A DNA stretch of 39,595 nt from a virus (taxonomy: Duplodnaviria; Heunggongvirae; Uroviricota; Caudoviricetes), in IMG/VR virus record IMGVR_UViG_2541047944_000005, positions 1 through 39,595 of that record; one strand, 5' to 3'. The position numbers and the translations under genes were made by a program. This document shows, one piece after another, positions 6,720-18,120 of this stretch. Position 1 is the first letter of the stretch. Every line of letters starts with the position of its first letter. The notes below the pieces were generated by a model that was not told the DNA's origin, searched no databases, and saw only the letters and a list, made by a program, of their open reading frames with translations.

Positions 6720-9542
6720 ATGACGGCAGAGTACATCAGGGACTGGCAACAACCGCGCCACGCAGTGGGGCGTGAAGGAACGGGGATCCCCGCTCCTGAA
6801 TCCGCACTTTCCTCCTGGCTGGATGCCTACCGGGTAGAGAACGAGCGCCGCCAGGAAATGGCTGATGCGGCGTTCTCCGCCACGCCACTGGGCAACCTGA
6901 TTAATAAAAGCCTGGACGCGCAGGAAAAACAGGACAAAACCATCACACTGGCAGGAGACGCCAGAAAACAGGCACGCGGTGCGGTGGATGAAGCCATGGC
7001 CTCGCTGCGCCTGCTGCCGTCCTATCTGCGCGATCCGCTTATTCGCCACCTCTCCTTCCTGCGCAAAAAACAGGAAGCCGATCGCCGGAAAGGCAAAAAG
7101 AGCTGGCAGGCGGAACGCTATGCACGCGGAACCCTGCGCAAAATATTGGAACGCCTGGCCCGCACTGACGGACGCTGGCTGACTCCGGGTTATCGCTCCC
7201 TTGCCGGACGTGAACGTCTGGACGATTTACTTTACCTGCCGCAGCTCAACAAACACCAGATACAGACACTGGCCGTCATGACGGCGGCAATGTTCAGCAG
7301 CACCTTCGAAAAACTCTGCGATGGCTTTGGCGCGACCGATGGCGAGCTGACCATGGATATAACGCTGAAGGCGTATCAGCTGCTGGCTCGCATGGCGTTA
7401 CATCTGCACACAGTGCCTCCGCATTATGACGCACTGACAACAGACAAAGACCGGAGGAACGAACCGGACACAGAACTGCTGCCGGGTGCAATCCTTCGCC
7501 TGACCTGTGCGGACTGGTGGAAACGCAAATTGTGGCTTTTACGTTGCGAATGGAGAGAGGAACAACTCCGCGCTGCCTGTCTGGTTTCCAGAAAAACATC
7601 CCCCTATCTGAGTCAGGATGCATTAAGTGAATTTCGCGCACAGCGCGAGAAAACACGCGATTTCCTGAAAAGTTTCATGCTGGAAAATGAAGACGGGTTC
7701 ACGATTGATCTCGAGACGGTGTATTACGCAGGTGTCAGTAACCCGGTCCACCGTAAAGCAGAAATGATGGCCACCATGAAAGGGCTGGAACTTCTGGCCG
7801 AAGCCCGTGGCGACAAAGCGGTGTTTCTGACTGTCACCTGCCCGTCAAAATACCACGCCACAACGGAGAACGGTCATCCGAATCCCAAATGGAACGGGGC
7901 CACAATGCGCGACTCCAGCGATTACCTGGTTAACACGTTTTTTGCGGCGGTCCGCAAAAAACTGAACCGCGACGGCCTGCGCTGGTATGGCATCCGCACG
8001 GTGGAGCCTCACCATGACGGCACTGTGCACTGGCATATGATGGTCTTTGCACATCCGGACGAGATTGAAACCATCGTGTCCCACGTCTGCGATATTGCCA
8101 TTCAGGAGGACCGCCACGAGCTGGGCGATGACATAACTCCGCGTTTTAAGGCGGAGTATGTCGACGGCTCAAAAGGCACACCAACCAGCTACATCGCCAC
8201 CTACATCGGAAAGAACCTGGACAGCCGCGCCGTGGATGGCATCGACCCGAAAACGGGCAAGCCACGCGTTGACCACGAAACCGGAAAATCAATGGCCGAG
8301 AGCGTGGAGCGCGCCATCGGCTGGGCGCGCCTTCACCGGGTCCGTCAGTTCCAGTTCTTTGGCATCCCCTCCCGTCAGGTGTGGCGTGAACTGCGCCGCC
8401 TTGCCAGCCAGATGGCACGCAATCCGGAAGGCCCGCAACGGCTGAAAGATGATGCAATGGATGCGGTACTCGCTGCCGCCGATGCCGGGTGTTTTGCCAC
8501 CTACATTGAAAAACAGGGCGGCGTACTTGTTCCACGCAAAGACTACCTGATTCGCACCGCCTACGACCTCGCAGATGAGCTGAATGATTACGGCGAACAG
8601 AGCGTACAGATTTACGGGATCTGGTCACCACTCATCGGGGAATCCTCCCGTGTGTGCACGCATCCGGATAACTGGAAACTGGTAAGACGTAAACCGGAAA
8701 CGGAAGACAGCGCCCGCGAAAATGGTTTTGACCTTCAGGGCGGCCCTGCCGCCCCTTGGACTCGTGGCAATAACTGTCCCCGTGTACAGGAAACGGACAA
8801 CAACGGGACAGAACAGCCGGAAGAACGACCAGCACCGTGGCCGCAGCTCCCTGACGGCGTTGAAGTGAACGAATGGATGCGCTCACTGAAACGGCACGAA
8901 CGCCGGGCGCTGATGCGTTCGCTTCGTGACAAACAGGCAAAAAACAGCAGTGATGAAATGCAGAGCTGGACACAGAGCCGCAAACAGCAGCGGCCTTTGC
9001 CTGATAACCACGAATTACTCGCTAAAGAATGGCGGGAATCTGCCGAATCTCTCGGCCTGCATATCGGTGAACAGCAGATGCAGCACCTGTTACGGGGCGG
9101 CAGCCTGTACGTTGACGGTAGCATCATTGCACCGCAGGGATTTGAAATTGTACGCAAACCGGATACCCGCCCGGACAGCCGAATCACGCAGTTCTGGCAG
9201 CGCCTGAGCCGTAATCACGGCGTAAGCAGCACAGAGATCCGCCATAACCCGGTCGCCAGCTATCTGGAACAACTGGGGGCATCAGACCCCGAAGCCGCCG
9301 CACGTCTGGCATCCACACTTCAGCAGGACCAGAACACCATGAAAACCCCCGTTACCGTGCTTTCTGACATGCTGCGCGCCATCCGTGACGCAGAGCACGC
9401 ACAGAGAATCAGTGAAACCACTGAACGCGCCCACCGCAAAGCAGACCTGCTGCGGGGTAGCCTGACCAGTGGAAACAAAAAACAGACAGAAACGGGACTC
9501 ACAAATCCCGTAAATGAGCAAAAAACGCGCCGCGATATATGA
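6720..9542 (+). CDS. A: rolling-circle replication initiator, P2 gpA family
   Basis: 940 aa; HUH-type motif HDGTVHWHMMVFAH and downstream Tyr-containing segment typical of P2 A/186 RepA; lies between early operon and cargo as in P2. Confidence 0.85.
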   Translation: MTAEYIRDWQQPRHAVGREGTGIPAPESALSSWLDAYRVENERRQEMADAAFSATPLGNLINKSLDAQEKQDKTITLAGDARKQARGAVDEAMASLRLLPSYLRDPLIRHLSFLRKKQEADRRKGKKSWQAERYARGTLRKILERLARTDGRWLTPGYRSLAGRERLDDLLYLPQLNKHQIQTLAVMTAAMFSSTFEKLCDGFGATDGELTMDITLKAYQLLARMALHLHTVPPHYDALTTDKDRRNEPDTELLPGAILRLTCADWWKRKLWLLRCEWREEQLRAACLVSRKTSPYLSQDALSEFRAQREKTRDFLKSFMLENEDGFTIDLETVYYAGVSNPVHRKAEMMATMKGLELLAEARGDKAVFLTVTCPSKYHATTENGHPNPKWNGATMRDSSDYLVNTFFAAVRKKLNRDGLRWYGIRTVEPHHDGTVHWHMMVFAHPDEIETIVSHVCDIAIQEDRHELGDDITPRFKAEYVDGSKGTPTSYIATYIGKNLDSRAVDGIDPKTGKPRVDHETGKSMAESVERAIGWARLHRVRQFQFFGIPSRQVWRELRRLASQMARNPEGPQRLKDDAMDAVLAAADAGCFATYIEKQGGVLVPRKDYLIRTAYDLADELNDYGEQSVQIYGIWSPLIGESSRVCTHPDNWKLVRRKPETEDSARENGFDLQGGPAAPWTRGNNCPRVQETDNNGTEQPEERPAPWPQLPDGVEVNEWMRSLKRHERRALMRSLRDKQAKNSSDEMQSWTQSRKQQRPLPDNHELLAKEWRESAESLGLHIGEQQMQHLLRGGSLYVDGSIIAPQGFEIVRKPDTRPDSRITQFWQRLSRNHGVSSTEIRHNPVASYLEQLGASDPEAAARLASTLQQDQNTMKTPVTVLSDMLRAIRDAEHAQRISETTERAHRKADLLRGSLTSGNKKQTETGLTNPVNEQKTRRDI

Positions 9543-11867: not shown

Positions 11868-12223
11868 CAGTTATCCTCAAGCTTTTTAATGATATCCGCA
11901 TGTTTTTCTCTTGTACGCTTCATTGCATCTTCAAAAGACAATCCTTTTTTTCTCTGTGCGACAAGAGCTGGATGACGTTTTTCCAGATCTCTCACTGCAT
12001 TTATTAAGAGTGGTTGCTTCATTTTGTTTATTTGATCCCGCAGTTTTTTGGTTTTGCCAAGGACAGCCCGTATTTCAGGACTAAGATCAGAACCAGCAAG
12101 AACAACATCCTTCCCTCCCTGCGCCGTGATAACGACACTGCCACCGGAAGAAAGGTAATCCAGAATTTCACTCAGGTTCTCACGAAATTCATCATCAGTT
12201 ACAGTTTTCATATTCATTTCCAT
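11867..12223 (-). CDS. phd: Phd/YefM-family antitoxin
   Basis: 118 aa; N-terminal region EFRENLSEILDYLSSGGSVVITAQGGKDVVL resembles Phd/YefM; start may be the third ATG (12211). Longer than P1 Phd. Confidence 0.65.
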   Translation of the reverse strand: MEMNMKTVTDDEFRENLSEILDYLSSGGSVVITAQGGKDVVLAGSDLSPEIRAVLGKTKKLRDQINKMKQPLLINAVRDLEKRHPALVAQRKKGLSFEDAMKRTREKHADIIKKLEDN

Positions 12224-12823
12224 TATGCACGCCCATAACGTAAGTATAACTACTTGTTGGGCAGTAATAACACCGCCATATTTTCATTTTATACACCGCA
12301 CAATAGTGCACAAATTTGCACAATTTTTTTGAACGACTTTTTACCCTTCCGGCCCGCATGGCGGCTGGATCCGTCAAGGATCCGTGCGTGCACAAAAAAA
12401 CGCGTTTTTTTCTGCGCGCAGGTGACGGGGGAACAGCCCGCGTTTCAGGGGGTAAATAGCATTCCCTGAACGATGTCGCAGCGACACAACAGAATGGCTG
12501 TATCGCTCACGCTGAGCGTGAAAAAGACGTAAGGGGTTCTGATTTAATGGGATGAAAGGTAAGGCCGTCAAAATCGCACTGAGGCGGCGAGAACATGCAG
12601 TCAGCGCGGTGGGATTGTGTAAGAGTCTGGCCGTCGATGATGGCAATAAGTCGGAAGACGTCGTGAAATTATCTGATTGATACGGGAGCTGGAGAGTCGG
12701 GGCATAAATTTTTTATGCCCCGGCGAAGCAGCAGACAAGCGAAGCGCGTCAGTGATGCGGCACCTTGCCGACCACACTTCATAAGTGCAAAATACGAGCA
12801 AAGAAATCAATGGAGGCTGTCTT

Positions 12824-13348
12824 ATGGTCATTAATTACAAGCAGTTAAGAGAAAAACGGGAGCAGGTAAAGGAGAGCTTTCGCCGCAATGAAGATCTGAC
12901 CCCGCTTGTACGCCTTGCCCAGGGCATTGTTGATGATTATGAAATCTCGCTGGAGCTGCCATCACAGACCTGGACAGATAGCGACGGTAATCGCCAGCAT
13001 TACGTTTCATGCGGACTGGAAGCAGCCGAAGGATTTCGCAGAATGCCTTTATCCCAGATCCCTGCCGCTACCCCCAAAGCACGGGGCAGCAATGATGAGC
13101 GAAAACTGACTTTTAGTATTGAAACGGTGGTTGACGACACACCTGGCGAAGTCGCGTTCGTGCACACTCCTCTTTCGATCGCAATGTATAACGATGAAAT
13201 ACAGGTTCGCGTTAATAATAATATCGTGCCACTTAAAGAAGGTAATTCACCATACACCACCGTTTGTGAAGCCATTCAATATTACGTTCTCTCTGAAATT
13301 GATAATCTCAAGCCTGACGGCACCCAGAAAATGGTTCAACTCTGGTAA
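12824..13348 (+). CDS. hypothetical protein (174 aa), orphan cargo gene next to portal
   Basis: ATG 12824 after GGAGG RBS; followed by a clean intrinsic terminator; no motif recognised. Confidence 0.55.
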   Translation: MVINYKQLREKREQVKESFRRNEDLTPLVRLAQGIVDDYEISLELPSQTWTDSDGNRQHYVSCGLEAAEGFRRMPLSQIPAATPKARGSNDERKLTFSIETVVDDTPGEVAFVHTPLSIAMYNDEIQVRVNNNIVPLKEGNSPYTTVCEAIQYYVLSEIDNLKPDGTQKMVQLW

Positions 13349-13362
13349 AAAGAACAGCCCCA

Positions 13363-18120
<4,758 letters not shown>

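Follow-up and report, generated by a model that had tools for sequence, protein, structure and literature searches.

The stretch of DNA considered here, hereafter the window, is the IMG/VR record IMGVR_UViG_2541047944_000005 (Caudoviricetes) at its full length of 39,595 nucleotides (nt), and by sequence comparison it is a P88-like (Xuanwuvirus) prophage of Escherichia coli within the P2 family, with phage P88 as its closest relative. Between the accessory cargo of this prophage and its portal gene Q lies a gene for a protein of 174 amino acids (aa). We show that this gene fits on four counts the definition of a moron, which in the sense of Hendrix and Juhala is an autonomous extra gene of a phage genome that is optional at a fixed site, carries its own terminator and promoter, deviates in composition and is expressed from the repressed prophage. 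The 174-aa gene is present or absent at a fixed site, is followed by a terminator, differs in composition from its neighbors and has moved between moron slots, with a promoter identified as a candidate only. On balance, we favor the reading that recombination placed this moron at the edge of the packaging module and that it likely encodes a lysogeny-associated factor in conflict between phages, acting by binding.

The inserted nature of the gene is seen in an alignment of the window with P88, P884B11, and PhiR44_2. Variable cargo stops at about 12297 and the block 12298-12752 is common to all four sequences, followed by a segment (12753 to about 13400) that is extra in the window and PhiR44_2 and missing at exactly that point in P88 and P884B11. 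PhiR44_2 (PV340564) and vB_EcoM-705R2 are both carriers of the gene. The right edge of this segment falls within the last ~10 codons of Q, where the C-terminus of the window protein differs from the ...YALLDTQPTS of P88; a Salmonella Q that also adjoins a homolog of the gene ends in ...YALLEEK. The GC content of the segment is 46.6% (47% at third codon positions, GC3), whereas Q, P, O, N, and M have 53-59% (GC3 of 61% for Q). These boundaries, together with the lower GC content, identify the segment as an inserted cassette. The same picture emerges from the spacing between the conserved block and Q in IMG/VR, which is ~438 nt in about 96 contigs and 1051-1052 nt in the 15 contigs that carry the gene, out of 119 with a P88-type block. 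Among 5426 complete E. coli genomes, 1150 contain the P88-type block and 397 (~7%) contain the block, the gene, and the end of Q, and thus the gene is absent from about two-thirds of P88-type prophages. A perfect 11-bp hairpin remains upstream of the cassette in the window, and its equivalent in P88 lies ~30 nt past the Q stop codon. The conserved block itself, at 455 bp, is far longer than the P2 spacer between cos (the cohesive-end site) and Q and may hold more than cos; it contains two small open reading frames (ORFs) at 12316-12459 (47 aa) and 12552-12680 (42 aa), which are annotated as genes in P88 (gp21 and gp22) and in other records. A search of 12150-13450 against Rfam returned sub-threshold noise only.

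The gene itself is real and under purifying selection, with a ratio of nonsynonymous to synonymous polymorphism (pN/pS) of 0.08-0.11 in the more divergent of 14 E. coli alleles. A GTG at 12785 opens a longer frame, and the start is assigned to the ATG at 12824 because all homologs begin at the equivalent M(V/T/S)I(N/T)Y. A preliminary description, made from the sequence alone, had called the gene well-signaled, with its own terminator and lying directly against Q. The GGAGG ribosome-binding site (RBS) 7 nt before the ATG and the hairpin with its T run bear this out, as does the distance of 14 nt between the stop codons of the two genes. What does not stand is the exclusive ownership of the terminator: the hairpin is followed by TTTTTT on the plus strand and CTTTTT on the minus strand, and since the Q stop codon (13363-13365) lies inside its loop, the structure is bidirectional and shared with Q rather than private to the 174-aa gene. 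Upstream, the candidate promoter resembles a weak sigma-70 element and is unchanged in 18 copies. In the Salmonella homolog, TTGTCT-17-CAAAAT stands equally far from the start codon, so that the two genes share the pattern TTGnCn-17-CAAAAT ~30 nt 5′ of the start codon. The Ogr-type late-promoter motif TGT-N12-ACA was not found ahead of the gene, and it is equally absent upstream of P and at other expected late positions, which makes its absence uninformative.

The protein has a mass of 19.8 kDa and an isoelectric point (pI) of 4.9 (family median 5.1), and no transmembrane (TM) or hydrophobic segment was detected in it, the highest 19-residue Kyte-Doolittle mean being 0.72. It is identical to WP_021572633.1, and is called "hypothetical" in every source; one allele is present on at least 1000 contigs. 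In agreement with the earlier impression that it bears no recognizable motif, there was no match at E ≤ 1 in Pfam, NCBIfam, or PADLOC (PADLOC-DB v2.0.0). To call it an orphan, as the same description did, was too strong. Residues 1-168 match the profile of phrog_5091 (PHROGs v4, function unknown) over positions 1-164 of 164 with E = 8e-67; this is a sequence cluster that carries no functional annotation, and membership is silent on mechanism. Close clusters recovered by a word-indexed search numbered just 19 and came from E. coli, Salmonella, and Trabulsiella. An exhaustive HMMER profile search of 1.84 billion representatives yielded 90 proteins at E ≤ 1e-3, nearly all of 155-175 aa, each of which represents a cluster at 50% identity; together they define an Enterobacterales family. 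All ten of the distant relatives tested belong to phrog_5091, and Pfam found no domain in these ten, with scattered sub-threshold matches only. Conserved motifs include an N-terminal M-x-I-T-Y-x-D-I-R, Y..SL.LP...W.D..G...YV..G, F.I.TV.DDSPRGG at the tip of a beta-hairpin, and VC..IK within the last helix. The conserved hairpin tip reads DDTPGE in the window protein (residues 104-109) and DDSPRGG in distant relatives, and Y39, S42, L43, and W50 form a patch.

An AlphaFold2 (AF2) model built from a 40-sequence alignment is confident, with a mean predicted local distance difference test score (pLDDT) of 87.7 and a predicted template modeling score (pTM) of 0.76. The predicted fold starts with two helices at the N-terminus, continues with an antiparallel sheet of eight strands, and ends in a single helix at the C-terminus. 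Remote homology search and structure prediction, which had been proposed as a check, thus produced a family of about 90 clusters and a good model, and no domain or fold match came with them: Foldseek with this model returned nothing at E ≤ 1e-3 in the PDB or BFVD, and a profile search of PDB sequences found no relative. Neither WP_001407222, a close counterpart discussed below, nor phrog_5091 is mentioned in any paper found in the literature. Taken together, the product is predicted to be a soluble, acidic alpha+beta protein of ~20 kDa that lacks a catalytic motif. Two specific assignments were considered and rejected, a secreted toxin for want of a signal peptide or TM segment and a type III secretion system chaperone for want of an adjacent effector and because of a weak fold score. 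That the gene is a chance ORF or a mis-annotation in an intergenic spacer is hardly conceivable: its small size and lack of annotation are all that would suggest it, and they stand against the phrog_5091 match, the 90 family clusters, a pN/pS of ~0.1, and the confident model.

The family is found in E. coli, Salmonella, Yersinia, Klebsiella, Xenorhabdus, and Trabulsiella, and its members occupy diverse positions. A P88-like contig (L030, IMGVR_UViG_2913167280_000009) carries a divergent 167-aa member (E = 8e-24 against the family hidden Markov model) with its own RBS, inserted between the equivalents of ~12677 and ~12686, which is ~70 bp further upstream than the window cassette and before the hairpin at 12698-12722. 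This second gene at a separate point indicates that the family entered the cos-portal spacer of P88-like phages at least twice. In Salmonella, a member adjoins Q, and in a Trabulsiella P2-like prophage one follows gpA immediately and precedes HicB and Phd/Fic genes. In six lambdoid contexts (from Klebsiella, Yersinia, E. coli, and metagenomes), the member is located between the antiterminator Q, or the last gene of the nin region, and the holin. One prophage carries it between the lysis genes and terS, and in Xenorhabdus it sits inside the tail module, between the tail chaperone and tape-measure genes. Most copies have a downstream hairpin and T run of their own, some have clear −10 elements upstream, and no partner gene is conserved across these contexts. 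The surroundings of some lambdoid copies are themselves of interest. In a Yersinia enterocolitica prophage (L142; 4150-6532 and 9165-10702), the Q-holin slot also holds a 411-aa ORF and, on the opposite strand, a gene for an NA37-domain protein, while the lysis genes are followed by a Ser/Thr kinase and PP2C pair; phage CharmingMan (L151; 4191-4768) carries tellurite-resistance-like and TciB-like genes.

This distribution bears directly on the possibility that the product is a packaging or virion accessory, such as a cos-binding factor, a helper of terminase or portal, or a head-internal protein. The gene lies beside the packaging genes, and such a role is nonetheless very improbable. The gene is missing from the viable phages P88 and P884B11, the latter isolated as a plaque-forming phage (PMC6969025), as well as from P2, 186, and the majority of P88-type prophages noted above. 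Most relatives occupy the Q-holin slot or other non-head slots of unrelated phages, and the orientation in the window is opposite to that of the head operon. Since viable relatives lack the gene and family copies reside in non-head contexts, a structural or packaging role was rejected; homology to a conserved structural or packaging protein of P2-like phages, which would have spoken for it, was not found.

The position of the gene relative to the ends of the virion DNA depends on cos. The P2/186 cohesive-end 19-mer was not found in the window at up to three mismatches, nor in the Salmonella or Trabulsiella loci, and when the P2 and 186 cos junctions were searched with blastn, short matches at chance level were all that came back. 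As this canonical sequence is absent, cos was placed by conservation and record ends. Homology among 97 distinct P88-like sequences begins sharply at 12298, and the best-conserved stretch (12298-12456) alone has a counterpart in a Salmonella P2-like prophage and in the Enterobacter phage phiT5282H (Novemvirus). In the two loci for which gene tables are available, this core lies between variable cargo and portal. Within this shared part, GCACAATTTTTTTGA and the 24-mer GCGCAGGTGACGGGGGAACAGCCC (12416-12439) are invariant, and GGTGACGGGGGAACAGCCC, embedded in the 24-mer, by inspection shares 13 of 19 positions with the P2 cohesive end. Across Xuanwuvirus, the Salmonella prophage, and phiT5282H, both the 24-mer and the motif GCACAATAGTGCACAAATTTGCACAATTTTTTTGA (12298-12332) are invariant or nearly so. 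The virion-derived record of P884B11 begins at the equivalent of 12342. Three sister P2-like records from the same study begin at nt 1 of P2 cosL and a fourth at nt 20, which suggests that record ends in this study reflect physical ends; the main text of the P88_4B11 paper is silent on how the genome ends were set (PMC6969025).

From this evidence, cos can be placed inside 12298-12456, upstream of the 174-aa gene, and the 14 nt that separate the gene from Q are too few to accommodate one. The request for a precise cos location was answered at the level of this region, and there are two candidates for the exact nicks: one is the P2-like 19-mer (12421-12439), the other is position 12342, where the P884B11 record begins. 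A 5-nt deletion in P884B11 falls within the first of these and may be an assembly artifact at the ends or may argue against that candidate. With either cut site, ~385-480 bp of virion DNA would lie to the left of the gene, which would be the left-most one, as had been proposed. P4-like satellites carrying the cos core alone were not signaled, nearly all E. coli matches to 12298-12456 being full length; one contig without a Q anchor (L083) was considered as a possible satellite and rejected as a rearranged prophage remnant.

That P2 has no gene at this place is correct. In P2, cosL occupies 1-19, the terminator tQ 160-181, and Q begins at 187; in phage 186, cos occupies 1-19, tW 164-187, and W begins at 196. 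In both, the interval between cos and portal contains a terminator and no gene. The slot does have a precedent within the P2 family. In the Pseudomonas phage phiCTX (Citexvirus), cosL (1-21) is followed by −35 and −10 elements, the ctx gene on the plus strand (362-1222), terminators, and, starting at 1417 on the minus strand, a Q homolog. The window repeats this architecture and position. A conversion gene in the cos-portal spacer, at the left end of the virion DNA, is therefore a known P2-family arrangement, for which we found no description in coliphages. The likeness ends with the cargo, as ctx encodes a pore-forming toxin unrelated to the 174-aa protein, which has no secretion signal, and the host and phage genus differ. 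A second parallel is provided by the lambdoid slot between the antiterminator Q and the holin gene S, of which stx is a moron. Relatives from phrog_5091 are located in exactly that slot, often beside other accessory genes, whereas the window copy resides in a P2-type genome facing portal and terminase genes, and the protein is unrelated to Stx or to named Q-S cargo.

These parallels lend some appeal to the idea that the gene is a lysogenic-conversion factor that serves host fitness or virulence independently of phages, as ctx or stx do. It shares its slots with both, it has the architecture of a cassette, and it is frequent in clinical and animal isolates of E. coli. We nevertheless regard this idea as improbable, because a protein with no signal peptide or TM segment, a highly charged N-terminus, and no toxin or enzyme domain has no recognizable secretion route, and because no conserved partner gene accompanies it.

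A role in conflict between phages is in better accord with the genomic setting. Q and P form a late operon in P2, and the 174-aa gene faces both of them across a terminator. This arrangement, the location of the gene in the gpA-gpQ interval, which is an anti-phage hotspot of P2-like phages (Rousset et al., 2022; PMC9122126), and the confinement of the family to temperate phages all argue for such a role. A near-identical protein, WP_001407222 (~98% nucleotide identity at the locus of the gene), is listed as "hypothetical" in Table S5A of that study (Rousset et al., 2022; PMC9122126). Like the tin/old cargo of P2 (the "TO region" hotspot), the 174-aa gene lies within the gpA-gpQ interval, is optional, and shows high turnover, and the Trabulsiella homolog is on the gpA side of the interval. 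It differs in that tin, old, and most cargo, including the ParMR, ClpX-type zinc-finger, and Phd/Doc genes of the window, are beyond cos at the right virion end, whereas the 174-aa gene is on the Q side.

Our favored reading, held with moderate confidence, is that recombination placed a self-contained cassette between cos and Q of a P88-like prophage, that the cassette directs its own transcription in the resident prophage, and that its product binds a phage or host protein stoichiometrically to the benefit of the lysogen. The most likely benefit would be the exclusion or handicapping of competing phages. More tentatively, and with less confidence than we attach to this reading, phrog_5091 as a whole may be a new effector that acts as a single protein in conflict among phages or between phage and host, be it in defense or exclusion or in counter-defense, with a fold absent from solved and from viral predicted structures. 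Temperate Enterobacterales phages would then have recruited it repeatedly to the edges of late and packaging modules (twice independently to the cos-portal spacer of P88-like phages and also to the Q-holin slot of lambdoid phages).

The main rival to this proposal is counter-defense during lytic growth, in which a small acidic binder expressed with or just before the late genes would block an immune sensor or effector of the host, such as one that responds to portal, terminase, or other late proteins. We consider this rather unlikely, but it is suggested by the lambdoid position just past the antiterminator Q and by the general look of the protein. The distribution of the family is harder to reconcile with it: among 50,697 phage records, members occur in temperate P2-like or lambdoid phages only and not in virulent ones, and they are nearly absent from plasmids (2 of 72,556 records). 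The orientation of the gene in the window also speaks against it.

Several observations weigh against a conflict factor made by the lysogen. No homology, nor any experiment, ties the 174-aa protein to a function, and no PADLOC v2 family matches it. The candidate promoter, with 8 of 12 consensus matches, is weak and was missed by a consensus scan with a threshold of 9/12. The lambdoid copies are co-oriented with the late operon just past Q, so that late lytic expression would fit equally well. To our knowledge, soluble single-gene exclusion proteins that have no enzymatic or membrane domain are uncommon. The insertion sequence (IS) in P described below means that neither expression nor benefit can be read from the window copy. 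Finally, WP_001407222 does not appear among the curated or tested systems in those supplementary tables of the hotspot study that were covered here (Rousset et al., 2022; PMC9122126).

The gene order of the region is gpA, ParM/Plasmid_stab_B, the ClpX-type zinc-finger gene, Doc/Phd (−), the conserved block, the 174-aa gene (+), Q (−), gpP, O, N, and M, and the principal features are collected in the table below. The Q protein shares 98% identity with that of P88 and 45% with that of P2. The gpA protein is 940 aa long, and its Phage_GPA domain covers residues 179-503 alone, so that the protein extends far beyond it at both termini. Between 9619 and 12223, on the gpA side of cos, the cargo begins with the ParM/Plasmid_stab_B partition pair and continues with a ClpX-type zinc-finger protein of 111 aa and, encoded on the minus strand, a toxin-antitoxin pair of the Doc(Fic)/Phd type; GC content falls to 40-43% in the last three genes. 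Partition systems are found in about one-quarter of P2-like hotspots (Rousset et al., 2022; PMC9122126). The terminase large-subunit gene gpP (minus strand; 16450-18120 and a remnant at 14409-14582) is split near codon 535 by an IS21-family element of 1951 bp (14556-16506; Pfam rve and IstB_IS21) with istA at 14639-15661 and istB at 15658-16440. When the gpP flanks of this element are aligned to the uninterrupted P gene of PhiR44_2, they overlap by 9 nt, probably the target duplication. The prophage in the window is thus probably unable to package, though the 174-aa gene is intact.

Table. Features of the window around the 174-aa gene; strand is left blank where it does not apply or was not given.
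Feature	Position	Strand	Remarks
gpA replication gene	6720-9542
cos (packaging) region core	12298-12456		placed by conservation and record ends; cut sites are candidates
Conserved cos-proximal block	12298-12752		joins the portal gene directly in P88 and P884B11
Perfect 11-bp hairpin	12698-12722		inverted repeat CGGGGCATAAA/TTTATGCCCCG; kept upstream of the cassette
Moron cassette (~650 bp)	12753-~13400	+	promoter-like element, RBS, ORF, bidirectional terminator, replaced last ~10 Q codons
Weak sigma-70-like promoter candidate	12765-12793	+	TTGCCG, 17 nt, CAAAAT; 8/12 matches
Shine-Dalgarno sequence GGAGG	12812-12816	+	7 nt ahead of ATG
174-aa gene	12824-13348	+	ATG 12824, TAA 13346-13348
Bidirectional intrinsic terminator	13349-13379	both	13-bp inverted repeat, 13349-13361/13367-13379
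Portal gene Q	13363-14409	−	Pfam Phage_portal; convergent with the 174-aa gene
O, N, M			head genes

The 174-aa gene belongs with morons and hotspot cargo, which are known as a kind, and its protein family is uncharacterized and structurally unassigned. Attention has so far been directed to the gpA side of cos, and the cassette shows that coliphages, like phiCTX, also accept insertions in the short stretch from cos to portal, which is thus a second slot. Anti-phage systems are known to come from the gpA-cos-Q interval of P2-like prophages, and phrog_5091, being common, under purifying selection, confined to temperate phages, and without a fold relative, is a cheap and well-defined candidate for phage-challenge and anti-defense screens. 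Should it prove to have no such activity, it would be one more conserved hypothetical prophage gene.
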